NCBI GenBank assembly: GCA_035375865.1
Contig: DAOSQO010000003.1
Coordinates: forward strand, 677 to 32,676
From: Bacillota bacterium
GTDB taxonomy: Bacteria; Bacillota; Clostridia; Lutisporales; Lutisporaceae
Direction: 5' to 3'
Length of the DNA: 32,000 nt
The notes under the pieces are model-generated. The model saw nothing but the letters and a program-made list of their open reading frames with translations. It ran no database searches and had not been told where the DNA came from. This document shows positions 6,836 to 23,553 of this stretch, piece after piece; position 1 is the stretch's first letter; each line of letters begins with the position of its first letter. The position numbers were made by a program, and so were the translations under genes.

Positions 6836-9565
6836 TTATTTATTAAGCTCCCTCAAGCCTGCCAGTACCTTTTCCGGATATGCAGGCAAATGCTTTATAC
6901 GAACACCGCAGGCATCATATATTGCATTTATTACTGAGGCATGGGGTGCGGAAAGGGGCATTTCCCCAACGCCGGAAGCCCCGAAGGGTCCATTGGGTCT
7001 TGGAGTCTCCTGATGGATAATAACAATATTGTCCGGTACGTCCATGACCTGGGGGATACCACAGCCTGTAAGAGTCATATGTTTTTTCAGGTCTTCGAAA
7101 TCCTCGCTCAATGCCAGGCCTATTCCCTGTGCAAGCCCGCCGTATATCTGTCCTTCTATTACCGGCTTATTTATTATTGTACCGCAGTCCGATACAATAG
7201 TCATTTTTTCCACAGTAGTTTTTCCTGTTATTGTATCCACTGCCACTTCCGTCATAAGTACCCCGTACATATAGGCAGAGAATGGGTTGCCCTGTCCTGT
7301 GGCAACATCACATGCCGTATTGGGGGCAGTCCATTTGCCTTCATGTCTTAAGGGCAATCCCTCTGCAACCATTTCATCATAAGTCCTGTAACTGCCGTCT
7401 GATTTCCTCATGGCTCCCATAAGATTTCTGCAGCCTGCCCCAATCGCATTTCCTGTAACAACATTCTGGCGGCTCCCCCCTGAGGGTCCGCTGTTGGGTG
7501 TAACCCTCATATCATTCAAAACCAATTTGATATTTTCAGGTCTTATGCCAAGAGGTCTCAAGGATTCGTAGGCATGGGTCAAAGCTCCCATATCTGCTCC
7601 CTGCCCATGGTCCTCCCATGAAGCGCCTATCGTTACCCCTTCCCTGGTCAACTCTGCCCATATCTCTGAGGAGTCGGCACCGTCAAGGCCGCAGCCATAC
7701 ATATTAAGGGATATTCCCACTCCGTACCTGATATCTCCGCCGTTCTTATTCTTCTCCCGGGCCTTTTCTTTTGCTTCTTTGTATAAGGGCCTTATTTTAT
7801 CGATGGCTTGTGGAAATGCAATAACATCAGGTGCACATCCGGTCGGAGTCGTTGAGCCTTCTCTATATACATTCAGGTATCTGAATTCCAGGGGGTCCAT
7901 TCCAATTTTTTCAGCCATCATGTCTGACAGTACCTCTGTTGCAAACAAACTCTGGGGCGATCCGTAAGATCTGAAAGCCGAGCCCCATGCATGATTCGTC
8001 GCTACGGTTCTTCCTGTGCCCCTGCTGTTTGGAATGTCATAACCGGCGCCTATGAACTGGGTACCTCTCATGGTAACAAGGTCTCCAAACTCACAATATG
8101 GCCCGTGATCAACCGACCAGTCGGCTTCCATTGCTTTCAGCCTGCCCCCTTTATCGGCTCCATACTTAAGATGGATGAAGAATGGGGATCTTTTGCCCGT
8201 GTAAGTTATTTGCTGATACATATTAAACTCAAGGAATACCGGTCTCTTGGACACCAGCGCGGCTACCCCCAGCAGTGCTTCATTGGTGGGACTGAATTTA
8301 TATCCGAAAGTGCCCCCGGTCGGATTCTGTACTATAAAAAACTTATCAGGAGCTACACCGATGCCTTCTGCCGTCATCAAATGGTGGAAATGCATTGCTA
8401 TGCTCTTTGAGTGGACAATCAGATTTCCTTCTTCATCAATATAAGCAAAGCCTACATCCGGCTCCAGTACAAGGTGCGGCTGCCTCCCAACATAAAAGTC
8501 ATCCTCTATGACATAAGGCAGGCTTTCCATCAAAGGTACGGTATCCTGACCCTTGACCCTATGAGTTTCAAAATAGATATTGGGCGTACCCGGATGTATT
8601 TCTATAGCATCCTCAGCCATGGCTTCGGGTGCGCTCATATAGGCAGGCAGCTCCTCCAGCTCAACCTTTACCATTTTGGCAGCTTCTTCTGCCTGCACCG
8701 GGGTATCTGCAAGCACCATAGCAAGTGCATCTCCAAATTGGAACACTTTCTTGTCATTGAGTATCGGCCTTTCTTTGCCGTCTCCCTTATTCTGAGGAAA
8801 TGCGAGGCCGTTGATCCGGTTTGTCCCGGGTACATCCTTATAAGTGATGACTTTGAATACACCGGGCATTTTTTCAGCTTCCGAAGTGTCTATAGACAGT
8901 ATATTGGCATGAGATACTTTTGCCTGAACTAATTTAATATGAAGAGTGTTTTCAGGAAGCTTCAGTCCTAAGTCCGCCCCGAAATCCCATGTGCCCATTA
9001 CCTTTGCAAGGGCGGAGGGGCGTATTGCGTTGGATCCCAGCATGCTTGCGCCTTCCTTCAGTTTGAACCACAGATCTTCCATCTTGATTTCTCCCCTGAG
9101 GATTTTAGCAGCATCCATAACGGCGTCAACCAACTGTATGTACCCTGTACATCTGCATACGTTTCTGTTTTTTTGGAACCATTCCCTTACCTCATTTCTT
9201 GCAGGGTTTACATTCTGGTCAAGTAAGGCCTTTGCGGACATAATGAAGCCCGGCGTACAGAATCCGCACTGCGCACCGCCGTGTACCATCCATGCCAGCT
9301 GCAGCGGATGAAGATTTTCCTGTGAGCCTATGCCTTCAATTGTAATGATCTGCGCTTCATCAGGGACATTTTTCATCTTTAGGATACAAGACCTTACCAC
9401 TTTGCCGTCCATGATGACCGTGCATGACCCGCATTCGCCTTTCCCGCAGCCGACTTTGGTTCCGGTAAGGCATAGCTGTTTTCTCACATACTGCGCCAAA
9501 GTTGTCTCCGGATCTGCAATCACGGTTCTTTCAACACCGTTGACAAATAATTTCCTCTTAAGCAT
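6836..9565 (-). CDS. Molybdenum aldehyde oxidoreductase, MOP type (xanthine-oxidase family, two [2Fe-2S] domains, no FAD domain)
   Basis: 909-aa single chain. N-terminal CGKGECGSCTV (plant-type 2Fe-2S), then GAQCGFCTPG and CRCTGY (second 2Fe-2S). The large Mo-pterin binding domains follow directly with no FAD domain. AGGAGG RBS. Confidence 0.9.
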   Translation of the reverse strand: MLKRKLFVNGVERTVIADPETTLAQYVRKQLCLTGTKVGCGKGECGSCTVIMDGKVVRSCILKMKNVPDEAQIITIEGIGSQENLHPLQLAWMVHGGAQCGFCTPGFIMSAKALLDQNVNPARNEVREWFQKNRNVCRCTGYIQLVDAVMDAAKILRGEIKMEDLWFKLKEGASMLGSNAIRPSALAKVMGTWDFGADLGLKLPENTLHIKLVQAKVSHANILSIDTSEAEKMPGVFKVITYKDVPGTNRINGLAFPQNKGDGKERPILNDKKVFQFGDALAMVLADTPVQAEEAAKMVKVELEELPAYMSAPEAMAEDAIEIHPGTPNIYFETHRVKGQDTVPLMESLPYVIEDDFYVGRQPHLVLEPDVGFAYIDEEGNLIVHSKSIAMHFHHLMTAEGIGVAPDKFFIVQNPTGGTFGYKFSPTNEALLGVAALVSKRPVFLEFNMYQQITYTGKRSPFFIHLKYGADKGGRLKAMEADWSVDHGPYCEFGDLVTMRGTQFIGAGYDIPNSRGTGRTVATNHAWGSAFRSYGSPQSLFATEVLSDMMAEKIGMDPLEFRYLNVYREGSTTPTGCAPDVIAFPQAIDKIRPLYKEAKEKAREKNKNGGDIRYGVGISLNMYGCGLDGADSSEIWAELTREGVTIGASWEDHGQGADMGALTHAYESLRPLGIRPENIKLVLNDMRVTPNSGPSGGSRQNVVTGNAIGAGCRNLMGAMRKSDGSYRTYDEMVAEGLPLRHEGKWTAPNTACDVATGQGNPFSAYMYGVLMTEVAVDTITGKTTVEKMTIVSDCGTIINKPVIEGQIYGGLAQGIGLALSEDFEDLKKHMTLTGCGIPQVMDVPDNIVIIHQETPRPNGPFGASGVGEMPLSAPHASVINAIYDACGVRIKHLPAYPEKVLAGLRELNK

Positions 9566-9593
9566 TACGTTTCCTCCTTTTTTTATTTATTTA

Positions 9594-9613
9594 CTGTATC
9601 AAGTTTGATACAG
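9594..9613 (-). promoter_or_regulatory. Perfect 20-bp palindrome in the oxidoreductase leader (candidate operator or 5'-UTR hairpin)
   Basis: CTGTATCAA-GT-TTGATACAG, located 29-48 nt upstream of the ATG at 9565. Confidence 0.3.
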
Positions 9614-9630
9614 CCCTCCCTTAGTCAAAT

Positions 9631-9671
9631 CCGCAATTTGAATATGCGGCTTTGCAATTTAGTATTGCAAA
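9631..9671 (-). promoter_or_regulatory. Cluster of GCAATTT/ATTGCAA half-sites (candidate operator)
   Basis: CCGCAATTTGAATATGCGG (5-bp stem), followed by TTTGCAAT-ttagt-ATTGCAAA (8-bp perfect inverted repeat). Confidence 0.3.
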
Positions 9672-10037
9672 TTCTATGCCATAACCATAAGCTAGTGCTT
9701 TCAACAGTTTTTGGAAACTTGAAAATGAATACTGTTCGCTATTTGCACATTTTTCTGTGCTGCTGCTCATTTTTTGAGCATCATATAATACATTGATTTA
9801 TGTCATTCAGGCAATTTGATTACGCAAGCAAGGTCGAGGAGTTTGCCCTTGTCCAATATAGTCTTTCCACCTACAACCACAGTAGGGGAGAGAATGACTC
9901 CGTCAAGAGTGCGCGCCATCAAATCTACGGTGATCAACGGCATTGAAGCAATAGCCGCAGGTATGCTTCCAAAACGTTTGACTTGACAGTATCCATTCGC
10001 AATCATTAATGGAGCTGTAGCGTTTTATAAATGCCTG

Positions 10038-10046
10038 TGTTATAAT
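10038..10046 (+). promoter_or_regulatory. Extended -10 promoter (TGtTATAAT) for the rubrerythrin-like gene
   Basis: TGTTATAAT lies about 25 nt upstream of ATG 10071. The -35 is poor. Confidence 0.45.
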
Positions 10047-10070
10047 AACGAATGAAAGGAGGGATTATGG

Positions 10071-10526
10071 ATGACTCATGAGGAGTACAAAAGAATAATC
10101 TCATATGCAATTAAAAACGAAGAAGACGCTTATTTGTTTTACAGGGATGTCGCACAAAAATCCAAGGATAAGAACATTTCCTCATTGTTTGAAGGCTTTG
10201 CAAAGGATGAACTATCTCACAAGGTTTTATTGGAAGGATATCTTTCCGGTTCGGTAAAATCATTGAAATTTGCAACCACTTCCGACTATAAGGTTGCGGA
10301 ATCAATTGATAAGCCAAAGCTTTCCATCGATATGAAACCATCGGATGCCATAGCTTTAGCTATGAAAAATGAAGAGGAAGCAATGAACATGTATATAGAG
10401 TTTGCAGGCTTAAGCAATGATCCGGATCAAAAGGAAACGTTCCTTGACTTAGCGGAAATGGAGAAAGGTCATAAGGCCAAACTGGAAGATTTATATGTAA
10501 GCGCTGCTTTCCCAGAAGCCTGGTAG
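10071..10526 (+). CDS. Rubrerythrin/ferritin-like diiron protein (no rubredoxin domain)
   Basis: Two ExxH-type helices: NEEDAYLFY...KDELSHK and NEEEAMNMY...EMEKGHK. AGGAGGG RBS. Confidence 0.8.
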   Translation: MTHEEYKRIISYAIKNEEDAYLFYRDVAQKSKDKNISSLFEGFAKDELSHKVLLEGYLSGSVKSLKFATTSDYKVAESIDKPKLSIDMKPSDAIALAMKNEEEAMNMYIEFAGLSNDPDQKETFLDLAEMEKGHKAKLEDLYVSAAFPEAW

Positions 10527-10530
10527 TATT

Positions 10531-10556
10531 AAGGGACAAGGAATACCTTGTCCCTT
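10531..10556 (+). terminator. Hairpin terminator after the rubrerythrin gene
   Basis: AAGGGACAAGG-aata-CCTTGTCCCTT, a perfect 11-bp stem. The T-tail is weak. Confidence 0.5.
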
Positions 10557-10656
10557 AACAGCTTTATTACTTCTCTGATTGCAGATTTTAATAAACTGGA
10601 CTAGAATAATAATTACAGAATTCTTGTTATATAAAAATATATTCAGGGTATTCAAA

Positions 10657-12330
10657 ATGATAGATATATATAGGAATTTATTAAACAATTTAATCTATGT
10701 AATAATATTGGCCTTTATTATTTCAAATCTTTCAATATTTAAGAAAATAATCCTTAAGGATGAGTTTAAAGGCTCCGACCTTATTGTATTATCTGTAATC
10801 TTTGCGATTTTTGGAATAATAAGCACATACGCCGGCACAGATGTGTATGGTGCGATAGCCAATACAAGAATAATAGGAATATTGGCGGGAGGTATACTTT
10901 TTGGTCCTTTTGTGGGCATTGTGTCCGGCATGATAGCCGGTCTTCATAGATTTCTTTATGATATCGGCGGCATAACCTCGATCCCTTGTGCGATATCGAC
11001 AGTTCTCGCCGGATGCCTTTCTGCTTTTATATATAAGAAAGGTATTAGGTTTGAGAAATGGCTATATGGACTTATTGGCGGAGTTTTTGTCGAAAGCCTT
11101 GAAATGCTTCTGATATTGATTATATCCAAACCTTACATTAGTGCACTTAAAATTGTGAAAAGCATATATTTCCCCATGAGTTTGACTAATGCCCTTGGTA
11201 TAAGCATCCTTATACTTCTGATACAGAAAAGCTTCAGTGAAAAAGAACAGATGGCTGCGAAACAGGCCCAATTGGCTCTTGAAATTGCGAATAAGACTCT
11301 TCCGTATTTCAGAGAGATAAACAGTGATTCCCTGAGAAAAATATGTTCAATAATAAAGGACTCTACAGGGGCCGCTGCAGTCTCAATTACTGACAAAACA
11401 ACAATTCTGGCCCATGAAGGGCTGGGTTCGGATCACCATGTCAGCGGAGATCCTATCCGGACCTCAGCAACAAAACAGGTTATTAAAGACGGTCAAATGC
11501 GCATATTGAATTCTCCGGAAGAAATTGAATGTTCATCGGAAGACTGTCAGCTAAAATCTGCACTTGTCGTACCGCTGAAAGAAAGGGAAGAGATTACAGG
11601 CACACTAAAATTATATTATGCTAAAGGGAACGGAATATCCTTTACCCATGAAAAGCTGGCCATAGGATTATCCCAATTGATATCGACTCAGCTTGAAATA
11701 AGCAAAGTCGGCAAGCTTAAGGAATTGGCTGCCAAAGCAGAAGTCAAGGCCCTCCAGGCTCAAATCAATCCGCACTTCCTATTTAACGCACTAAACACCA
11801 TAATAGCTCTTTTAAGAATCAACCCGGATAATGCCAGAGAATTGATCGTCAGCCTGTCATCCTATTTAAGGTATAACATAGAGGAAACAAGCACTTTCGT
11901 AGATATAAGCAAAGAACTTCAACAGGTTAAATCCTATGTGGAAATAGAAAAGGCAAGGTTTGGGGATAAACTTAAAGTGACCTATGATATTGATGAAAGC
12001 ATCCATGTTAAGATTCCTTCCCTTACCATACAGCCTATTGTTGAGAATTCAATAAAACATGGGATACTGAAAGGTTCCGGCTCAGGAAACGTCAGGATAT
12101 GCGTAAGAAGACACAACTCAAGTGAAGTCAAGGTTGTAATAGAGGATGACGGCACCGGTATCCCCCAGGCTATCATTGACAGAATATACTCAGGGGCGGT
12201 TTGTGAAAATAAAATAGGCATGTCCAATGTAGATGCCAGACTTCGTCATATTTATAATACGGGACTTACCATTGAGCGCCCCGAAGTCGGCACAAAAATC
12301 AGTTTTGTCCTTAGTGACAATAGTAAGTAG
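10657..12330 (+). CDS. LytS/BtsS-type sensor histidine kinase (5TMR-LYT membrane domain, GAF-like, His_kinase, HATPase)
   Basis: A multi-TM N-terminus, then the LytS-type phosphoacceptor box ALQAQINPHFLFNALNTI, the N-box QPIVENSIKHG and the G-box DDGTGI. The start is moved to ATG 10657 (MIDIYRNLL). The track's extension upstream is AT-rich leader. Confidence 0.85.
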   Translation: MIDIYRNLLNNLIYVIILAFIISNLSIFKKIILKDEFKGSDLIVLSVIFAIFGIISTYAGTDVYGAIANTRIIGILAGGILFGPFVGIVSGMIAGLHRFLYDIGGITSIPCAISTVLAGCLSAFIYKKGIRFEKWLYGLIGGVFVESLEMLLILIISKPYISALKIVKSIYFPMSLTNALGISILILLIQKSFSEKEQMAAKQAQLALEIANKTLPYFREINSDSLRKICSIIKDSTGAAAVSITDKTTILAHEGLGSDHHVSGDPIRTSATKQVIKDGQMRILNSPEEIECSSEDCQLKSALVVPLKEREEITGTLKLYYAKGNGISFTHEKLAIGLSQLISTQLEISKVGKLKELAAKAEVKALQAQINPHFLFNALNTIIALLRINPDNARELIVSLSSYLRYNIEETSTFVDISKELQQVKSYVEIEKARFGDKLKVTYDIDESIHVKIPSLTIQPIVENSIKHGILKGSGSGNVRICVRRHNSSEVKVVIEDDGTGIPQAIIDRIYSGAVCENKIGMSNVDARLRHIYNTGLTIERPEVGTKISFVLSDNSK

Positions 12331-12365
12331 CAAGTCTGTTCCGGTATTAAGATAGGGGTGAGCCC

Positions 12366-13064
12366 ATGAATTGCATTATAGTGGATGATGAATTTCCATC
12401 CATACAAGAATTAAGCTATTTTATCACAAACTTCAGTTCAATAAAAATAACAGAATTCTTTGACGACAGCATCAAAGCTCTTGAATACGTCCAAAGGCAT
12501 CCTGTGGATGTGATTTTTCTTGATATAAATATGCCAAAGCTTGACGGCATGGCATTCAGCAGGGTGATAAATACAATGGCTGCAAAACCTATATTCGTAT
12601 TTATAAGTGCTTATAGCGAATATGCCCTTGAAGCTTTTGAAGTTGCAGCTTTTGATTATATTTTGAAGCCTTATTCGGAAAACAGAATGATTAGCACGCT
12701 GCAAAGGCTTGAAAACAGCTCTCCTAAGTGCAGCAACGACAAGATGACTTTATGGGGAAGTGACAAATTAACCGTATTGAATATAAGTGATATATACTAT
12801 TGTGAAGCGCACGAGCATGAGATCCATGTATATACAAAGGATGATCGGTTTATAGTATCCTCAGGTATTTCCGGTTTCCAAAAAAGGCTGCCTAAAAATA
12901 TCTTTTTCAGATGTCACCGTTCTTATATTGTAAATATTGATAAAATAAAAGAGATTATCCCTTGGTTTAACAATACGTATATGCTTAAGCTTAAGGGATT
13001 GGATTCGGAAATTCCCGTAAGCAGAAAAAATATCATTTCATTTAAAAGACTAATGGGCATATAA
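12366..13064 (+). CDS. LytTR-family response regulator
   Basis: Receiver domain (IIVDDE...DVIFLDINMPKLDG...ISAY) plus a C-terminal LytTR domain (FFRCHRSYIVNIDKI). Confidence 0.9.
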   Translation: MNCIIVDDEFPSIQELSYFITNFSSIKITEFFDDSIKALEYVQRHPVDVIFLDINMPKLDGMAFSRVINTMAAKPIFVFISAYSEYALEAFEVAAFDYILKPYSENRMISTLQRLENSSPKCSNDKMTLWGSDKLTVLNISDIYYCEAHEHEIHVYTKDDRFIVSSGISGFQKRLPKNIFFRCHRSYIVNIDKIKEIIPWFNNTYMLKLKGLDSEIPVSRKNIISFKRLMGI

Positions 13065-13093
13065 ATGCATTTTATGTGCCCATTTTGTTATTT
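13055..13093 (+). terminator. Rho-independent terminator overlapping the response-regulator stop
   Basis: GGGCATAT / ATGTGCCC stem (one G.U pair), 11-nt loop, then ATTTTGTTATTT. Confidence 0.55.
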
Positions 13094-13232
13094 AATGTAT
13101 TTTTTAACGTAGGCATGCAAATTAGCTTTATAATTGTAGCTGAAGAAACATATCCAATCCTCGTTACAGTCAGCGTTTAAATAAGCGGAATGACACATGT
13201 AACTATACTAAATCTTAATTTAGGGGAATAGA

Positions 13233-13736
13233 ATGGAATACGAGAAATATATTGCCATATTAAAATCAAAATTCGAAAGACATTTTAATATTGATACGGA
13301 TATTATAGTATTCGGAATCAAAATTGACATGTTTGCAAGGTTCGCAGATGTCAGAGCAAGAACATTCATTACCAAAAATGACGTAATAGACAAATATGAA
13401 AACTATGAATACTGTTATATCAAGAAATACGATAATATCACCGAAGAAGAAGTATGCGCCTATGGACAGTTTTTAAAAAAAGTTGCGGATGAACGTATTG
13501 AACCGGGTAAAGACCATATGAGCACAAATGTTACGGGGGTTATGATAGGAAATAACATTAGCAGCAATGCAAAGAAACATATAGAAAAATATAGATACAG
13601 TAAAGTATATTCATTCTATTTAAAAGGTTGGTGCGACGTAAGGCTTATTTGTATAGGCCTTGACAATAATGAGGTTGTTACAAATAAAGCCGGCAAAAAA
13701 GTTAAAATGGTTTATCAATCTGCACTCTCGGAATAG
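13233..13736 (+). CDS. Hypothetical soluble protein (167 aa), no recognisable motif
   Basis: Clean ORF with an AGGGGAA RBS, between the LytTR regulator and cstA. No TM segments and no family recognised. Confidence 0.55.
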   Translation: MEYEKYIAILKSKFERHFNIDTDIIVFGIKIDMFARFADVRARTFITKNDVIDKYENYEYCYIKKYDNITEEEVCAYGQFLKKVADERIEPGKDHMSTNVTGVMIGNNISSNAKKHIEKYRYSKVYSFYLKGWCDVRLICIGLDNNEVVTNKAGKKVKMVYQSALSE

Positions 13737-13820
13737 AAGCTTTAGTAATGCTTTGTTTGAGTACCAAATGTTTCAGCATTTTTTCATTGCAGGAATCGCT
13801 GGTTTATCATTAGGGCATAA

Positions 13821-13839
13821 AGGAAATCCATGATTTCCT
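13821..13839 (+). promoter_or_regulatory. Palindrome in the cstA leader/promoter
   Basis: AGGAAATC-cat-GATTTCCT, located 29-47 nt upstream of ATG 13868. Confidence 0.25.
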
Positions 13840-13867
13840 GTGCATAATTATAAAAGGAGGTTTTTCA

Positions 13868-15505
13868 ATGAACTCATTAGTTTTATTAATTATCGGTGCT
13901 ATATTGTTTCTCGCCGCCTATGCTTCTTATGGAAGCTACCTGGCGAAACAGTGGGGAATCGACCCGGATAAGAAAACTCCAGCGTGCGCTCTCAGGGATG
14001 ATGTTGACTATTGTCCCGCAAATGCCAAAGTGCTCCTGGGGCACCATTTCTCATCCATAGCCGGTGCAGGCCCAATTACAGGCCCTATACAGGCCGCTAT
14101 ATTCGGATGGCTGCCTGTGTATCTGTGGATTGTTCTTGGAAGTATGTTTGTCGGCGGTGTCCATGACTGGGGCTCACTTTTTTCATCGGTCAGACACGGA
14201 GGTAAGTCTATAGGTGAGATAATAAGAGTGAACATCGGTGAAACCGGCAAAAAGCTCTTCAACTACTTTGCATATCTTACATTAATATTGGTTGTTGCAG
14301 CATTTACAGACATTTGTGCAGGCACCTTCGCTTTTGATCCGGCAAAACCTGAGGTACTGACAGGAGCCAGGGCAGGTACTGCGTCAATCCTCTTTATATT
14401 CCTTGCTATGGGCTTTGGCTATTTTGTCTACAGGAAAGGGGCAAGGCTGTCTGTATCTACCGTAACAGGCGTAGCTTTACTGTTCTTCTGCATATGGATA
14501 GGCTACCAGTTCCCTGTCCTTAAGTTTTCCAAATTAACATGGGATATAATAATGATTGTTTACATTTTTGCAGCTTCAACAATGCCTGTTTGGCTTCTTT
14601 TGCAGCCCAGAGATTATCTATGCTCCTTTCTGTTATATGCAATGCTTGCGGGAGCGATTCTGGGCATCCTGCTTGTAAGACCTGCAATGGCTATACCTGC
14701 AGTTACAGGCTTCAAAATCGGTGAAGGCGCAAAGGCCCAGTATCTCTTCCCAATGCTGTTTGTTACTGTAGCCTGCGGTGCAGTATCCGGCTTCCACTCA
14801 CTGGTCAGCTCCGGCACAACCTCAAAGCAGGTGGAAAATGAAAAGGATACAAAGCTTATCGGCTATGGTGCAATGCTCATTGAAGGATTGGTCGCAATAG
14901 TAGCGCTTATCTCGGTTTCTTATGTGGCGGGAGCCAAAGGAACACCTGCCCAGATATTTTCCACCGGTGTTGCAGAATTTATGAGCAAGTTTGGAATTCC
15001 CACTTCTGTTGGCAGTGTATTTGTAATACTTGCATTCTCCGCATTTGCATTGACAAGCCTTGATACCGCAACAAGAATAGGCCGTTATATGTTCCAGGAA
15101 ATGACTGTAAAAGCAGACGGTACAAAATCACCCCTGAATAATATGTATACGGCAACTGCTATAACCGTCGGCTTGTCGGCATTGCTGCTTTCATACGGGT
15201 ACCAGAAGATATGGCCTATATTTGGTTCTGCGAACCAGCTGCTTGCTGGGCTTTCACTTCTTGCAGTTTCGGCATGGCTTGCCAAGTCCGGTAAGAAGAA
15301 TCATATGACTGTAATACCAATGGTATTCATGTTTGCGGTTACGCTTACGGCTCTCATATTTGTGGCCAAAACCAACTTTGCCGGCGGCAACTTTATTATC
15401 GGAGCCTTAGCTGCTATCCTCTTTGTATTGGCAATAGTGTTGATTACAACCTCAATAAAAATATTCTCCGGAGATAAACCCAAGGATCAGAATGTAAACG
15501 CATAA
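13868..15505 (+). CDS. cstA: Carbon starvation protein CstA family transporter (peptide/pyruvate-type)
   Basis: Polytopic protein with the CstA hallmark N-terminus: ...VLLGHHFSSIAGAGPITGPIQAAIFGWLP...WIVLGSMFVGGVHD. AAGGAGG RBS. Confidence 0.9.
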   Translation: MNSLVLLIIGAILFLAAYASYGSYLAKQWGIDPDKKTPACALRDDVDYCPANAKVLLGHHFSSIAGAGPITGPIQAAIFGWLPVYLWIVLGSMFVGGVHDWGSLFSSVRHGGKSIGEIIRVNIGETGKKLFNYFAYLTLILVVAAFTDICAGTFAFDPAKPEVLTGARAGTASILFIFLAMGFGYFVYRKGARLSVSTVTGVALLFFCIWIGYQFPVLKFSKLTWDIIMIVYIFAASTMPVWLLLQPRDYLCSFLLYAMLAGAILGILLVRPAMAIPAVTGFKIGEGAKAQYLFPMLFVTVACGAVSGFHSLVSSGTTSKQVENEKDTKLIGYGAMLIEGLVAIVALISVSYVAGAKGTPAQIFSTGVAEFMSKFGIPTSVGSVFVILAFSAFALTSLDTATRIGRYMFQEMTVKADGTKSPLNNMYTATAITVGLSALLLSYGYQKIWPIFGSANQLLAGLSLLAVSAWLAKSGKKNHMTVIPMVFMFAVTLTALIFVAKTNFAGGNFIIGALAAILFVLAIVLITTSIKIFSGDKPKDQNVNA

Positions 15506-19234: not shown

Positions 19235-20137
19235 CTATATCAGGGACGTACTGAAATACCTTTCAACTCTGTCAGGCAAAACAGTCACAACATTCTTGTC
19301 TTTGCCGTACTTCTGTGCAATTTTCATAGAGGCCCAGACATTGGCGCCTGAAGAGGTTCCTGTGAGAATGCCCTGCACTTTAGCCAAATCCCTTGCCATA
19401 CCGATTGCATCATCATCCGTAACCTGAATCACTCCGTCTATAAGGCTTACATCCAGGACTTTTGGGATAAAGCCGTCACCGATTCCCTGAATCTTGTGCA
19501 ATCCCGGCTCATGCCCAAGGAGTGCAGATACGTTTTTAGGTTCTACCGCAATTATCCTGGCCTTCGGGTTCTTTTCCTTAATAAACCTGCCGACTCCTCC
19601 CAGGGTTCCCCCGCTGCCCAGCCCCGAAACGAAAAAATCAACCTTGCCCTTCATCTGTTTCCAGATTTCCGGAGCTGTAGTAAGATAATGAATTTCAGGG
19701 TTATCGGGGTTTTCAAACTGCTGCGGAACAAAAATATTCGGGTCTCCTGCCTTGCGTCTTTCTACTTCCGACACCGAACCGCCAATGCTTTCTTCGGCAT
19801 TGGTAAGGATTAGTTCCGCCCCTAACGCCAATATAATCTTTTTTCTCTCCTCACTCATATTTTCCGGCATAACAATTGCCACCTTATATCCTTTTTGGAC
19901 GCCGACCAGAGCCATGCCTATCCCGGTATTGCCTGAAGTAGGTTCCATGATTGTCATACCTGGTTTTAATACTCCCCTCTTTTCCGCCTGTTCAATCATA
20001 TGTTTCGCGACCCTGTCTTTGATACTCCCGCCGGGATTCAGGTATTCTGCTTTGGCAAAGATATTCGACCCTGTCAATTTATTCAGGCTTACCAACGGCG
20101 TGTTGCCGATGATATCCAGTATGCTTGCGGTTATCAT
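19235..20137 (-). CDS. cysK: Cysteine synthase A (O-acetylserine sulfhydrylase), PLP-dependent
   Basis: Motifs: EYLNPGGSIKDRVA (PLP lysine), SGNTGIG, GSGGTLGGVG. Confidence 0.9.
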   Translation of the reverse strand: MITASILDIIGNTPLVSLNKLTGSNIFAKAEYLNPGGSIKDRVAKHMIEQAEKRGVLKPGMTIMEPTSGNTGIGMALVGVQKGYKVAIVMPENMSEERKKIILALGAELILTNAEESIGGSVSEVERRKAGDPNIFVPQQFENPDNPEIHYLTTAPEIWKQMKGKVDFFVSGLGSGGTLGGVGRFIKEKNPKARIIAVEPKNVSALLGHEPGLHKIQGIGDGFIPKVLDVSLIDGVIQVTDDDAIGMARDLAKVQGILTGTSSGANVWASMKIAQKYGKDKNVVTVLPDRVERYFSTSLI

Positions 20138-20276: not shown

Positions 20277-21242
20277 TCACTTTTGATATAGCTCATCAAT
20301 CTCGGAAACAATGCTCTTATCAGGGAAAAGCCGGTCAAACTTTTCTGGCATTCTATCCTTATAGTAAGAAAACCTGACATTTGGACAGTCGACAAAAGCC
20401 CCCTCCGAGAGGCTGCTGAAAGATTTTCCGATGGTTATATTTGTAAGCCGCGGGCAGGATATAAAAGCGTTATCTAAAATGGCTCCGCACTCGTCGCTCA
20501 TCACAATGCTCTCCAGATTCCGGCAGTTGTGGAAGGCAAATCCCCCGATAATTTGAACAGATTCGGGAAGCTTCACCTCTATTCCATTTCCGTGATACTT
20601 TCTAAGCAAGCCATGATCAATTTCAAAATCCTCTTCCGGAAAAAACGCAATTGATCCGGTGAAAACCTTCTCAAGTTCCTTCTTTGTAGATGAATTCAGG
20701 TGGCATTGAGTTGGAGTGACCGTGCGTTTTACTGCCGGCTTCAGCACCGTTTCAAAGGAATATGTGTATTTGCGTCTGAAGGATTCATCGTCCATATTGT
20801 ACTTAAGAATTGCCTGCTTTGAGCCCATCTGGAGCTGAAGCCCCGGCGTCAATGCAGTATTTTTAGTATATATCGCGATAAAAGGCAGTTTTTTTGACAG
20901 TGCAAAGTTGATCTCGTTGCGCACATTGAGCGAACCAGCAGCTGCAGGCGTTATGAAAACTACAAACAGCGAACAGCGATCCAGTGCATTGGCTATCTCC
21001 TCCGGCCACTCGATGCCGGGTTCAATTCCTTCATCGTACCAAACATTGTAACCCATGTCGTTGAATTCCGAAATAATGGGATACACCGCTGGGGAATCCA
21101 CATGAGCATAGCTTATGAACATATAAGGCTCTTTGCCTTTGTACGCGGGAAACGGTATACCGGACACACTGTCGTAGTGTGTTGCTGACGGCGTTTCTAC
21201 CTGGACATTTTTTTTGTTTCTTAACTTATCAAATATACCCAT
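20277..21242 (-). CDS. TIR-domain protein with C-terminal BspA-type leucine-rich repeats
   Basis: TIR core approximately aa 38-150: PYMFISYAHVDS...YNVWYDEGIEPGIEWPEEIANALDRCSLFVVFITPAAAGSLNVRNEINFAL, with candidate catalytic Glu at residue 110. The C-terminus carries LRR_5-like repeats (LPESVQIIGGFAFHNCRNLESIVM...ILDNAFISCPRLTNITIGKSFSSLSEGAFVDCPNV). AGGAG RBS. Starts 13 nt after the upstream stop. Confidence 0.8.
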   Translation of the reverse strand: MGIFDKLRNKKNVQVETPSATHYDSVSGIPFPAYKGKEPYMFISYAHVDSPAVYPIISEFNDMGYNVWYDEGIEPGIEWPEEIANALDRCSLFVVFITPAAAGSLNVRNEINFALSKKLPFIAIYTKNTALTPGLQLQMGSKQAILKYNMDDESFRRKYTYSFETVLKPAVKRTVTPTQCHLNSSTKKELEKVFTGSIAFFPEEDFEIDHGLLRKYHGNGIEVKLPESVQIIGGFAFHNCRNLESIVMSDECGAILDNAFISCPRLTNITIGKSFSSLSEGAFVDCPNVRFSYYKDRMPEKFDRLFPDKSIVSEIDELYQK

Positions 21243-21255
21243 ATCCTAAACTCCT

Positions 21256-22983
21256 TTACTTTTTGTAAACGGCCATACCGATCCGCTCCAGCAGCAGGGG
21301 GATATTCTGCACCGGATCTCGGTCCAGCTGCTTGATATCCTCCGGTAGTTTATCATAGGGCACAAGATACGGCGTGGTCTTTTTCTCAGCATCTGCATGA
21401 TCTCCTGCCACCCATCCGGATGCGATCCGCTCAGCCATCCAGGCTTCATGTTCCTGCTCTGCAAGATACTCTACATATTCTTCCGGTATGCTCCTGACAG
21501 GATAATCGCTGCCCGCCGGGCCCATTACAAAGCCCATTTGGCGTAATTTCTCAGGTATATCCATGGCCTGACGCAGATTTGAATATTTCAATGAATCCGT
21601 CAGTTTATCAAAACCAGGATACTTGAGAGGTTTACCGGGGTAGCGTTCCAGTTGCTTTTCATTATATAGCTCGTGTATGGCCCGTGCTAATTTTTCAATA
21701 TCCTTAAGCTCAGGACGTGGTGTGATCTCATCGCCCGGTTCAGGCAGGACCGGCTTTTTCACTGATTTACAATGAACAGCAACACCATCGAACAGTGCAT
21801 CCAAATCCAGCAGCTTAAATAGAAGCTTTTTCTTTTCACGGGAAAAATCGGCTGGTAAGGATCCATTATGTGTGATTAAGGTCAAAGTAAGTTTCTCATC
21901 AGTCACTTCCAAGCCGGCCTCTGCGGCAAGGGTTCTGAGTTTGTCCTTGATCCCATAAGCTTTTCGGTTCCACTCCTGTAACTCATCACAGAGTATGAGC
22001 AGAAAAGCTATTGGATGGGTGTTTGGAGCAAGCGCACTGAGATTGAATGGTTTTTTCATCATCATGTTTTTATAGCAGTTATGCAGAAGTATTGCACTGG
22101 CACTGTCCAGCACCGGCCAGAAGAAATATTCAGGCTTATATTTTGCTGACTGAATAAGGTAACCATACCACTTCAGCACTATTATTGAACTGTAATAACC
22201 GTGATCAATAAATCCGAATCGTGCCATAACATTTACGAAGTCGTCCAGAGCAAATTTCATATCCTTCAAATCAACGCCCAGTGATGTATGCAGCTTGTGC
22301 GCCAGCAGGTCAACGGGTTTGAGCATGTCGATATAAACACTGTCCTCATAGTGGTCAAAGTAGCATTTCGTAAAAACCCGCTTAGGTATGATCTCAGATA
22401 TTCGGTTGAGCTCCTGAAAATTTTCAAAAGAAAGCTGCACGATGACCGGTTTCTCTTTGTCGCCCACGGCTGTGGCAAAATCTATGAATTTGTTGATTTG
22501 TCGGCCGACTATTTCTACCGGATAACCCACGTCATGGAAAAGGGAGGCAAGACCCCAGCGGTAGTAAAATTCCTCGTTCCTGGTATCGTAAGAAAATGGA
22601 TACTCCTTCTTGTTCATCACTGTTTGTTCAAAGGCAGAGCGGAACCTGGCATTGCCTGCATAAATGCTAAGACCAAGAAGGAAGACATTGACGGAATGGA
22701 TATAATGGTCCCGCTGCCTGTCGATAAGGACGGCGGCATTTTCCTCATAGCTTTTCAGTACATCCAGCAGGTCGATAAACGGGTTTGAACTACCCTTGAG
22801 CGTAATTCGGTAACTGTCAAAAAATGCTCTGTATACGGCAAATGCCGTTTCTTTTGTTTCGTTGTCAAAAAATTCGCGGATGGCTTGGCGCATGAAGATC
22901 TTATAGCAATGCCCACGTTCTGTATCTTCAAAAACTTCAAGCTCATCAAAAAACTTTTCAACACATTTTCGCATATCATTCAT
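21256..22983 (-). CDS. HD-superfamily-like phosphohydrolase domain fused to two C-terminal RyR (ryanodine-receptor-type) repeats
   Basis: N-terminal half: RDHYIHSVNVFLLGLSIY ... ASLFHDVGYP ... FIDHGYYSS ... LILCDELQEW, giving an H..HS / HD / H / D pattern. C-terminal repeats: LARAIHELYNEK...LKYSNLRQAMDIPEKLRQMGF and LAEQEHEAWMAERIASGWVAGD...TTPYLVPYDKLPEDIKQLDRDPVQNIPLLLERIGMAV (RyR-domain signature). Confidence 0.7.
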   Translation of the reverse strand: MNDMRKCVEKFFDELEVFEDTERGHCYKIFMRQAIREFFDNETKETAFAVYRAFFDSYRITLKGSSNPFIDLLDVLKSYEENAAVLIDRQRDHYIHSVNVFLLGLSIYAGNARFRSAFEQTVMNKKEYPFSYDTRNEEFYYRWGLASLFHDVGYPVEIVGRQINKFIDFATAVGDKEKPVIVQLSFENFQELNRISEIIPKRVFTKCYFDHYEDSVYIDMLKPVDLLAHKLHTSLGVDLKDMKFALDDFVNVMARFGFIDHGYYSSIIVLKWYGYLIQSAKYKPEYFFWPVLDSASAILLHNCYKNMMMKKPFNLSALAPNTHPIAFLLILCDELQEWNRKAYGIKDKLRTLAAEAGLEVTDEKLTLTLITHNGSLPADFSREKKKLLFKLLDLDALFDGVAVHCKSVKKPVLPEPGDEITPRPELKDIEKLARAIHELYNEKQLERYPGKPLKYPGFDKLTDSLKYSNLRQAMDIPEKLRQMGFVMGPAGSDYPVRSIPEEYVEYLAEQEHEAWMAERIASGWVAGDHADAEKKTTPYLVPYDKLPEDIKQLDRDPVQNIPLLLERIGMAVYKK

Positions 22984-23171
22984 TTATACCGCCCTCGCAT
23001 TCTCTTTCGTTTGTTGTTCTTAAGTTCAACTGTTTGCTTTCACAGATACTCAAAATCAACTTCTTTAATGCCGTTCTATATCATCAACAAAAACCTTCCT
23101 GCGATATTTAGAACACCCTTGCAAAAATACACAACATTGTTGTTTGATTTAAGTCTAATATTCATATTTGT

Positions 23172-23200
23172 ATCATACCATCACGATTTGTCTAATACAA
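23172..23200 (-). promoter_or_regulatory. Candidate sigma-A promoter for the HD/RyR-TIR cassette
   Basis: On the minus strand: TTGTAT, 17-nt spacer, TATGAT, with TGg immediately upstream of the -10. This implies a leader of about 180 nt. Confidence 0.4.
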
Positions 23201-23221
23201 GAACAAAGGCGGCTTCGCCGC
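23195..23221 (-). terminator. Small GC hairpin plus U-rich tail
   Basis: On the minus strand: GCGGC-gaa-GCCGC followed by CTTTGTTCTTG. It abuts the candidate -35. Confidence 0.35.
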
Positions 23222-23283
23222 ATTTGCCGCCCATGCGCCTTTTTCGAGTATGCGAGAAAAATATGGCGCGGGCACTTAAATCA

Positions 23284-23334
23284 AGGTTTTTTATTGTATA
23301 GGAAAGTTATACTTTCCTATACAATAAAAAACCT
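23284..23334. repeat. Perfect 51-bp palindrome (24-bp arms, 3-nt centre)
   Basis: AGGTTTTTTATTGTATAGGAAAGT-tat-ACTTTCCTATACAATAAAAAACCT. Every arm position pairs. Confidence 0.95.
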
Positions 23335-23364
23335 ATTGAAAAACGTCGAGGTTTCCAATAGGTT
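23330..23364 (-). terminator. Hairpin overlapping the palindrome arm. On the minus strand it is followed by a U-run.
   Basis: AACCTATTG ... CAATAGGTT (9 bp). The minus-strand tail TTTTTTATTG is the palindrome's arm. Confidence 0.4.
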
Positions 23365-23553
23365 GTGCCTTATATCCTTATAGCTGAAGATAGGGGCTTT
23401 ACGGCACTTTCGGCAATAGTCTGCTACCCTTGTGATTATCCACGGCAGCGGAATATCATCTGCTTATCCTGTCTCTTATTTCTGACGCCTGCCTGAATAG
23501 CTCGCAAGCGTTTCGGGGATCTCGCCCATCCTCCAAAACTGTCAATTCCTGTC

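Follow-up and report, generated by a model that had tools for sequence, protein, structure and literature searches.

The 32,000-nucleotide (nt) stretch of the Bacillota (Lutisporaceae) contig DAOSQO010000003.1 analysed here (assembly GCA_035375865.1, positions 677 to 32,676; hereinafter, the window) contains a two-gene cassette that encodes protein A, in which a probable HD domain is joined to a ryanodine receptor (RyR)-type Repeat12-like domain, and protein B, in which a TIR domain is followed by leucine-rich repeats (LRRs). The hypothesis that we put forward, and to which we give about even credence, is that this pair is a Thoeris-like TIR signalling module, with B as the sensor and signal maker and A as an HD-like effector gated by its RyR domain. 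The hypothesis builds on direct observations, namely the domain content of the two proteins, the operon structure, the genetic coupling of A homologues to TIR genes along with outright fusions, and the conservation of catalytic and ligand-contact residues. The features of the cassette, with the source of each assignment, are these:

21256..22983, minus strand: gene A (HD-like / small alpha/beta / RyR Repeat12-like), 575 amino acids (aa); open reading frame (ORF) call
20277..21242, minus strand: gene B (TIR-LRR), 321 aa; ORF call, Pfam TIR_2 and LRR_5
21251..21255, minus strand: AGGAG ribosome-binding site of gene B; direct sequence reading
21949..22983, minus strand: HD-like all-alpha domain of A, aa 1-345; alignment, hhalign, weak PF01966 similarity
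21754..21936, minus strand: small alpha/beta unit of A, ~aa 350-410; AlphaFold2 model
21259..21711, minus strand: RyR Repeat12-like domain of A, aa 425-575; Pfam, PDB profile match, Foldseek
20808..21119, minus strand: TIR_2 domain of B, aa 42-145, with the catalytic Glu110; Pfam
20343..20630, minus strand: BspA-type LRRs of B, ~aa 205-300; Pfam LRR_5, PDB matches
22984..23553, no strand assigned: 570-bp spacer upstream of the cassette, with terminator-like hairpins; hairpin and inverted-repeat analysis

Gene A is the first gene of the operon and gene B the second; the 13-nt gap between them (21243-21255) reads AGGAGTTTAGGAT and includes the AGGAG, 8 nt ahead of the ATG of gene B. A and B are co-transcribed as one operon, and in homologous pairs the gap between A and its partner is often 2-6 nt, or gives way to a 4-nt overlap. 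This arrangement of same-strand 575-aa and 321-aa ORFs, 13 nt apart with an AGGAG in between, had been proposed in a first-pass annotation made from the letters alone; its coordinates prove exact, and each of the motifs it quoted is found at the residues given for it in A or B.

Central to the hypothesis is the genomic neighborhood of A homologues, which we analyzed in 80 loci from Clostridia, Chloroflexota, Actinomycetota, Bacteroidales and one archaeal metagenome-assembled genome (MAG), with ORFs called by our own script and searched using local profile hidden Markov models with an E-value limit of 1e-5. A TIR gene lies no more than 6 kb from the A homologue in 40 of the 80 loci, in 27 of them within 150 nt, with 10 of these overlapping A. 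A DUF4062-NACHT/AAA-TPR or -WD40 (STAND) protein is found in the same 6-kb range in 14/80 loci, a SLATT-type membrane protein in 22/80, a transmembrane-TrkA_N-RyR protein in 16/80, and none of these partners in 12/80. The DUF4062-STAND gene replaces the TIR gene in 13 of its 14 loci. A Pfam census of the 127 nearest flanking genes is dominated by TIR_2 (26) and ThsB_TIR (20), followed by LRR_4 (15), LRR_5 (14), TrkA_N (7) and RyR (6), with unrelated families at 3 or fewer each. TIR genes are rare in bacterial genomes, so that their count beside A homologues amounts to a very strong enrichment. The association had been suggested as a check on the first-pass annotation, and a TIR gene is indeed the conserved neighbor of the 575-aa protein: it is there in half of the loci, is the top flanking family, and is found fused to the A architecture in several orders.

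The fusions place TIR at either end. The order HD-like-RyR-TIR is seen in proteins P0094, P0096 and P0117, and the order TIR-HD-like-RyR in P0289 and, with two TIR domains, in P0277, P0280 and P0296; overall, TIR is found at the N-terminus of 7 out of 150 representatives (50% identity), and one of these 7 proteins (P0319) lacks RyR. The HD-like domain also occurs next to TIR genes without any RyR domain: the locus of P0218 holds three TIR genes, P0276 begins 6 nt after a 241-aa TIR protein, P0291 adjoins a ThsB_TIR gene and P0250 has a faint ThsB_TIR neighbor. Thus, the core association is that between the HD-like domain and TIR, with RyR being an add-on of the subfamily to which the window belongs.

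The TIR partners themselves vary in what they carry besides TIR, namely BspA-type LRRs (LRR_5), LRR_4, PASTA, an SBP_bac_5/OppA-like domain or nothing, and in other loci STAND NTPases with TPR or WD40 repeats stand in for the TIR gene. Variation of this kind is typical of immune receptors. Unusual sensor modules among the fusions are an OppA/SBP_bac_5-like solute-binding domain joined to TIR (L033:3134-5488, minus strand) and PASTA joined to TIR in L087 (176-1555 and 4250-5851), where three TIR genes surround a single HD-like gene. The SLATT-type partner is a protein of ~500-575 aa (L055:7712-9262, L036:7801-9528, L048:4494-5954, L087:2783-4240) in which a conserved N-terminal domain precedes tandem subthreshold SLATT_3 and SLATT_4 membrane domains; this N-terminal domain matches no Pfam family and contains the motifs VGVTGHR, SLAxGxD and GGCGTA, which make us suspect that it may be SLOG-like. 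An hhalign comparison of this N-terminal domain with TIR and with DUF4062 was negative, as was its positive control of DUF4062 against TIR. The transmembrane-TrkA_N-RyR protein (~590 aa) has N-terminal transmembrane segments and a C-terminal RyR; its loci, which include L029:2096-3877, L030, L031, L035, L066, L068 and L070, are mostly from Anaerolineae. RyR may thus be a receiver module that is shared by different effectors. Searched against PADLOC, the partner proteins yielded generic TIR similarity only, to which NCBIfam added subthreshold SLATT matches and generic TrkA and OppA-type matches; neither search called a system.

Turning to protein A itself, the AlphaFold2 model was built on a family alignment of 94 sequences (43-78% identity), which is also the basis of all calls of invariant residues, and has a mean pLDDT of 88.3 and a pTM of 0.80; a model built on 14 sequences only, in which pLDDT dropped below 50 over aa 152-296, was replaced by this one. 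The protein consists of three parts, which in this model are an all-alpha domain at aa 1-335, a small alpha/beta unit of three strands and one helix at aa 355-407 (pLDDT ~80-97) and a helical two-repeat domain at aa 426-575. The family is large, with at least 1193 relatives of A in a word-indexed search and 2469 representatives of the N-terminal domain alone at 50% clustering. A matches nothing in PADLOC or NCBIfam, and its Pfam content is limited to RyR. A homologous pair (L064) is also found in a cultured isolate, Lawsonibacter faecis NSJ-52, which provides an experimental entry point. The archaeal member, a 752-aa homologue with 44% identity, comes from a Methanobrevibacter sp. MAG (L073; WRMT01000004.1) and suggests either inter-domain transfer or contamination of the assembly bin.

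The C-terminal domain of A is the part that can be assigned to a family directly. Pfam RyR (PF02026) covers aa 501-572 with an E-value of 2.8e-16 (59.9 bits against a cut-off of 27.4) and includes the motif EHEAW...LDRD (511-556), whereas the weaker second repeat, at ~aa 425-500, is backed by the family profile of A, which matches the Repeat12 chains of RyR1-3 in PDB in two stretches with E down to 4e-28, and by Foldseek. In the Foldseek comparison, the model aligns with human RyR3 848-1055 (6uhh) over ~200 columns at 24-25% identity (E 2e-6), and with this structure and the Bacteroides/human chimera 6uhi at a probability of 1.00, E of 2e-6 to 1e-5 and target TM-scores of 0.55-0.63; the Repeat12-like region, aa 425-575, is modelled with pLDDT ~85-90, and among the viral models in BFVD phage RyR proteins are matched. 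Both of the RyR-type repeats that the first-pass annotation had placed at the C-terminus are thus supported, the clear one by Pfam and the weaker one by the PDB profile match and Foldseek. Invariant residues are H437, S468 and Q472 in repeat 1, and E511, H512, W524, K535 and D554 in repeat 2, where W515, K551 and R555 are conserved in more than 90% of the sequences.

What such a domain might bind is suggested by two 2026 preprints, in which phage RyR-domain proteins counter Thoeris and bind 2'cADPR and 3'cADPR, isomers of cyclic ADP-ribose (cADPR), at nanomolar affinity, or cleave them (PMC13232231; 10.64898/2026.06.04.730250). For one of these proteins, RyR Tad gp68, the Kd for 1''-3' gcADPR is 43 nM (10.64898/2026.06.04.730250). 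In an alignment of A to the RyR Tad homologue (183 aa) encoded by Pectobacterium phage CB3, four of the contact residues find their counterparts: H129 corresponds to H512 and D171 to D554, both invariant in the A family, and W132 corresponds to W515 and K168 to K551, both conserved in more than 90% of it. The ability of the RyR family to bind cADPR isomers makes the idea of A as a sensor-effector concrete, and it seems to us possible, with somewhat less than even confidence, that RyR Repeat12 is a native bacterial receptor for TIR-made cADPR isomers and that A is the first host effector found to use it.

The same comparison bears on where A belongs. The HD-like domain was detected in one of 50,697 phage records, in none of 72,556 plasmids and nowhere in a pattern scan of IMG/VR, and by this near-absence a phage or plasmid origin of gene A was ruled out. 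In contrast, the RyR query matched 173 phage records, a combination that fits a host sensor whose ligand-binding module is also carried by phages. The single match of the HD-like domain in the phage collection, MT836912.1 4768-5871 (26% identity, E 3e-22), lies in an unannotated 8.3-kb 'Bacteriophage sp.' record from human faeces; this may be either a fragment of bacterial DNA that was misclassified or one of the rare copies carried by a phage.

The N-terminal domain of A is a more difficult case. Its motifs HYIHS (93-97), FHDVG (149-153), DHG (260-262) and CDE (332-334) contribute to six candidate metal ligands, H96, H150-D151, H261, H301 and D333, that are invariant in the family alignment and fully or almost fully conserved among 28 more distant homologues in which the domain stands alone (26-46% identity); the full set of invariant residues in the domain is Q90, R91, D92, H93, H96, H150, D151, D260, H261, H301, N302, D333 and E334. 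Two-metal HD enzymes show this same succession of H, HD, H, H, D. In A itself, Pfam does not detect HD, and a search of PDB sequences with the profile of the domain gave no matches at E up to 10. The only Pfam family that recurs in the 28 distant homologues is PF01966, in 5 of them, with E of 0.004-0.2 and scores below the 22-bit cut-off; these alignments are colinear, with H96 to H150-D151 falling on profile positions 2-40 and H301 to D333 on positions 51-114. Comparison by hhalign with 12 canonical CCA-type HD domains gave a probability of 85% at a pairwise E of 6e-6. The HD motif drives this match, in which hRDHYiHSV falls on the first His motif and LFHDIgYP on LFHDIgKP; in an alternative alignment, DHG and LLHN are paired with the later His motifs. 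Thus, the earlier HD-like call stands on invariant ligands, a weak colinear PF01966 similarity and the hhalign result, whereas a direct Pfam match in A is lacking, and the N-terminal domain of A is a probable HD domain as judged from sequence. Two long proteins, P0327 (1271 aa) and P0352 (1366 aa), start with the HD-like domain and end with a canonical PF01966 HD domain, and the ~700 residues in between match no Pfam family.

The assignments for protein B are straightforward. Pfam TIR_2 covers aa 42-145 (E 4e-17, above the gathering score), with the motifs FISYAHVD (42-49), WYDE (68-71) and SLNVRNEINFA (104-114), the last of which places E110 in an S-x-x-V-x-x-E-I motif; the equivalent of this glutamate is retained in 37 of the 40 TIR proteins of the related loci. 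LRR_5 (PF13306) follows at aa 222-290 (E 4e-14, 52.9 bits against a cut-off of 27.7), and the region matches the BspA-type LRR proteins 4gt6 and 4fs7 in PDB at E 1e-19, so that both the TIR core and the BspA-type LRRs recognized in the first pass hold, each above its Pfam gathering score. Against PADLOC, B shows weak, mostly generic TIR-domain similarity, and against NCBIfam, weak TIR matches and one LRR-adhesin match. The PDB entry 8suf, matched by B as a 'TIR domain-containing protein', is C. elegans TOL-1 and reflects generic LRR similarity. That B might be a truncated pseudogene was also considered and ruled out because partners of 312-325 aa recur in L001, L013, L015 and L018.

How, then, could the two proteins work together? 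Under the hypothesis of a Thoeris-like module, the LRRs of B would recognize a trigger, most plausibly a phage protein, and this would license the TIR domain, through Glu110, to turn NAD+ into a messenger of the cADPR type. The messenger would bind in the repeat 2 pocket of the Repeat12 domain of A (His512, Trp515, Asp554) and switch on the HD-like domain, probably a two-metal phosphohydrolase or phosphodiesterase, which would then degrade an essential nucleotide or nucleic acid and so arrest the infected cell. In this scheme, we infer what the ligand is, which way the signal runs, what the HD-like domain acts on and that the module counters phages.

Several observations weigh against the chain of events outlined above. 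The assignment of the HD domain falls below the Pfam threshold, and in the Foldseek search with the whole model of A the N-terminal domain remains unmatched, the top 50 PDB matches and the confident BFVD matches all being to RyR. Two of the contacts of RyR Tad are not retained in the pocket of A: K147 corresponds to A530, at a position where the family consensus is Lys, and the phosphate-contacting His of the phage proteins, H154, corresponds to T537, with Ser or Thr throughout the A family. Among the 52 loci with at least 3 kb of sequence on both sides, 7 (13%) have no recurrent partner; close homologues of A, P0022 (82% identity) and P0077 (71%), are orphans with housekeeping genes around them; and in 11 loci A is paired only with a SLATT-type protein, with no TIR gene within 6 kb, an arrangement that fits a simple chain from TIR to A poorly. 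In the window, there is no other defence-type gene within 10 kb of the cassette, and its G+C content is not anomalous.

The main alternative, unlikely as we consider it, is that A is an off-switch or a processor, in which the RyR domain would capture the TIR product and either cleave it as a glycosidase or pass it to the HD-like domain for hydrolysis. A would then limit autoimmunity or convert the signal, and toxicity would stem from NAD+ depletion by TIR or from the SLATT-type or TrkA_N-RyR effectors. The catalytic dyad of the phage protein RyDEP, His75/Asp117, corresponds to the invariant H512/D554 of A, which counts in its favour, whereas sponge-type phage homologues keep the dyad without catalysis, so that its presence does not predict cleavage (PMC13232231). 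The additional effector-like genes beside A, SLATT-type in 22 loci and transmembrane-TrkA_N-RyR in 16, also speak for this scenario. SLATT has been validated as a type of Thoeris effector (10.64898/2025.12.03.692087). Nevertheless, there are minimal modules, consisting of TIR and A or of TIR and the HD-like domain alone, that hold no other candidate effector; a conserved six-ligand HD-like site in a 575-aa protein exceeds the needs of a sponge; and the fusions of TIR with HD-like/RyR resemble sensor-effector fusions.

Also improbable, in our view, is a non-immune role, with the pair functioning in NAD/ADP-ribose signalling or housekeeping of anaerobes, for example, in stress or envelope sensing, such that the HD-like/RyR protein would act as a phosphohydrolase under metabolite control and recruit a TIR partner in some cases only. 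The orphan A genes and the SLATT-only loci noted above are compatible with this possibility, as are the housekeeping flanks in the window, L096 and L097, the absence of the family from plasmids and phages, bar one unannotated record, and the fact that animal Repeat12 domains bind ATP/ADP (PDB 6uhh, 9l9b). Yet the swapping of LRR, PASTA, SBP, TPR and WD40 sensors, the replacement of TIR by STAND and the SLATT-type partners are hallmarks of conflict systems, and the distribution of the family is patchy and cross-phylum, with flanks that are not conserved even at 90% identity. A reversed flow of signal, with the RyR domain of A sensing a phage- or stress-derived adenine nucleotide and then regulating TIR-LRR as an NADase effector, appears very improbable: many bacterial TIRs are indeed NAD+-depleting effectors and not signal makers (reviewed in 10.64898/2025.12.03.692087) and A is encoded first in the operon, but the variable LRR, PASTA, SBP and STAND-repeat modules mark the TIR protein, not A, as the sensor of the trigger, and the conserved HD-like site of A would be left without a role.

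The genomic setting of the cassette is compatible with mobility. On one side, it is flanked by an iron/cobalamin-type ABC transporter and a DUF364 gene, and on the other side by cysK, purC and a metallophosphoesterase gene; both the housekeeping flank (cysK) and the palindrome-rich 570-bp spacer pointed out previously are there. The DUF364, purC and metallophosphoesterase genes of the window lie beside none of the 80 homologous loci, including the 90%-identical locus of Lutispora (L001), and this lack of recurrence, even in so close a relative, implies that the cassette moves between contexts. The notion of an inserted island has this non-conservation of the flanks as its sole basis, and the cassette shows neither compositional anomaly nor a neighboring defence gene; in the related loci, conflict-type partners (STAND, SLATT-type) are present but the flanks are mostly housekeeping genes. 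Upstream of the cassette in L001 (5044-5577), there is an Imm5-like putative immunity protein (E 2e-37), which hints at a polymorphic-toxin or conflict context there. The cysK-like (PALP) gene of the window (19235-20137) is immediately downstream of the cassette, and cysK-like genes with 46-48% identity to it directly neighbor the A homologues of L037 and L038 and occur ~5 kb off in L021, a recurrence that may be coincidence.

In the spacer (22984-23553), a perfect inverted repeat of 24 nt, with 3 nt in the loop, occupies 23284-23334 and is flanked by two further terminator-like hairpins at ~23319-23375 and ~23205-23242; in an Rfam scan of the window no RNA family was detected, the palindromic spacer having no match to a known riboswitch or leader. 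The ABC/DUF364 operon upstream probably has its terminator or terminators here, with the cassette's own leader and promoter coming next, and the terminator-like hairpins fit the cassette being a separate transcription unit. Elsewhere in the window, G+C content drops to 0.33-0.40 at 9500-14000, coincident with a strand switch; this region holds a LytTR-type two-component system, a DUF8052 gene and cstA.

Should the hypothesis of a Thoeris-like module hold, it would add a system with an RyR Repeat12 receiver and an HD-like enzyme family (the 2469 representatives mentioned above), and would supply the missing host side of the two 2026 findings of phage RyR proteins that sponge or cleave cADPR immune signals, with RyDEP and RyR Tad being captured copies of a host sensor. 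TIR proteins, whose sensors (LRR, PASTA, SBP-like and STAND-repeat) are interchangeable, would then feed into common receivers, namely HD-like-RyR, transmembrane-TrkA_N-RyR and SLATT-type proteins. TIR immunity of bacteria would become connected with the RyR sponges of phages and with the Repeat12 domain of animals, the function of Repeat12 as a sensor of cADPR isomers would become testable in animals as well as in bacteria, and the long-debated connection of cADPR with the ryanodine receptor could be approached at the molecular level.

Among the known systems and domains, canonical HD phosphohydrolases (PF01966) share with A the colinear H...HD...H...H...D pattern and the all-alpha fold, and the motif LFHD(I/V)GYP resembles their LFHDIGKP. 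The domain of A differs by an insertion of ~100 residues between motifs II and III and by the additional invariant residues R91, D92, H93, N302 and E334; it scores below the PF01966 gathering threshold and has no solved relative detectable by sequence. Phage RyDEP and RyR Tad have the PF02026 fold and ~50% identity to A over the core of repeat 2, and the equivalents of the His, Trp and Asp ligand contacts of RyR Tad are conserved in A. These proteins are small (183 aa in gp68), with a single RyR unit that dimerizes, and act in anti-defence, whereas A is host-encoded and chromosomal, has two repeats in one chain, to which a putative HD-like enzyme domain of 345 aa is fused, and is linked to TIR genetically. 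In animals, Repeat12 (human RyR3 848-1055; 6uhh, 9l90), the best structural match of A aa 425-575, is likewise a two-repeat pseudo-dimer with an adenine-nucleotide pocket, and is part of a Ca2+ channel of 5000 residues, whereas in A it forms the C-terminal end of a soluble bacterial protein, putatively an enzyme. With TIR-NLR/TLR receptors, B shares the joining of TIR to repeats, and with these and the STAND (Avs/NACHT) sensors a recognition module made of repeats; in the 14 related loci with a DUF4062-NACHT/AAA-TPR or -WD40 protein, that protein replaces the TIR-LRR gene or shares its place. Unlike those receptors, B has no NTPase domain and is a short (321 aa), cytosolic protein with about three BspA-type repeats.

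The closest comparison is with Thoeris. Like A-B, Thoeris is a two-gene operon in which a TIR protein with a catalytic glutamate is paired with a nucleotide-binding domain joined to an enzyme (putative in the case of A), and in both, TIR stays constant while the effector types are swapped, with SLATT-type proteins among those in the loci related to A-B. ThsB proteins are mostly bare TIR domains, whereas the TIR domain of B carries its own LRR sensor. The presumed sensor of A is RyR Repeat12 and its putative enzyme a divergent HD-like domain, again unlike Thoeris. PADLOC and NCBIfam models of Thoeris show no match to the pair beyond generic TIR similarity. As defined in the survey of these systems, Thoeris combines a ThsB TIR protein with a signal-activated effector, in types I-XI, the effectors being SIR2-SLOG, Macro-TM, caspase-like, DUF2270, DUF6650, SLATT, CMP hydrolase-TPR, TIR-SLOG, ion channel and HIT hydrolase proteins (Yirmiya et al. 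2025, 10.64898/2025.12.03.692087). A matches none of these effector families (ThsA, ThsC-ThsL) as described there, and the text of the survey and the searched part of its Table S1 include neither an effector with RyR or HD nor the TIR motifs of the window (10.64898/2025.12.03.692087); neither of the two RyR preprints describes a host effector with an RyR or HD-like domain (PMC13232231; 10.64898/2026.06.04.730250). The earlier statement that the pair corresponds to no known TIR system is thus borne out to the extent that PADLOC, NCBIfam and the searchable literature, including the accessible portion of the Thoeris survey, do not name it, and neither an RyR sensor nor an HD-like enzyme, as presumed from the domain content of A, is described for host TIR systems in that literature.

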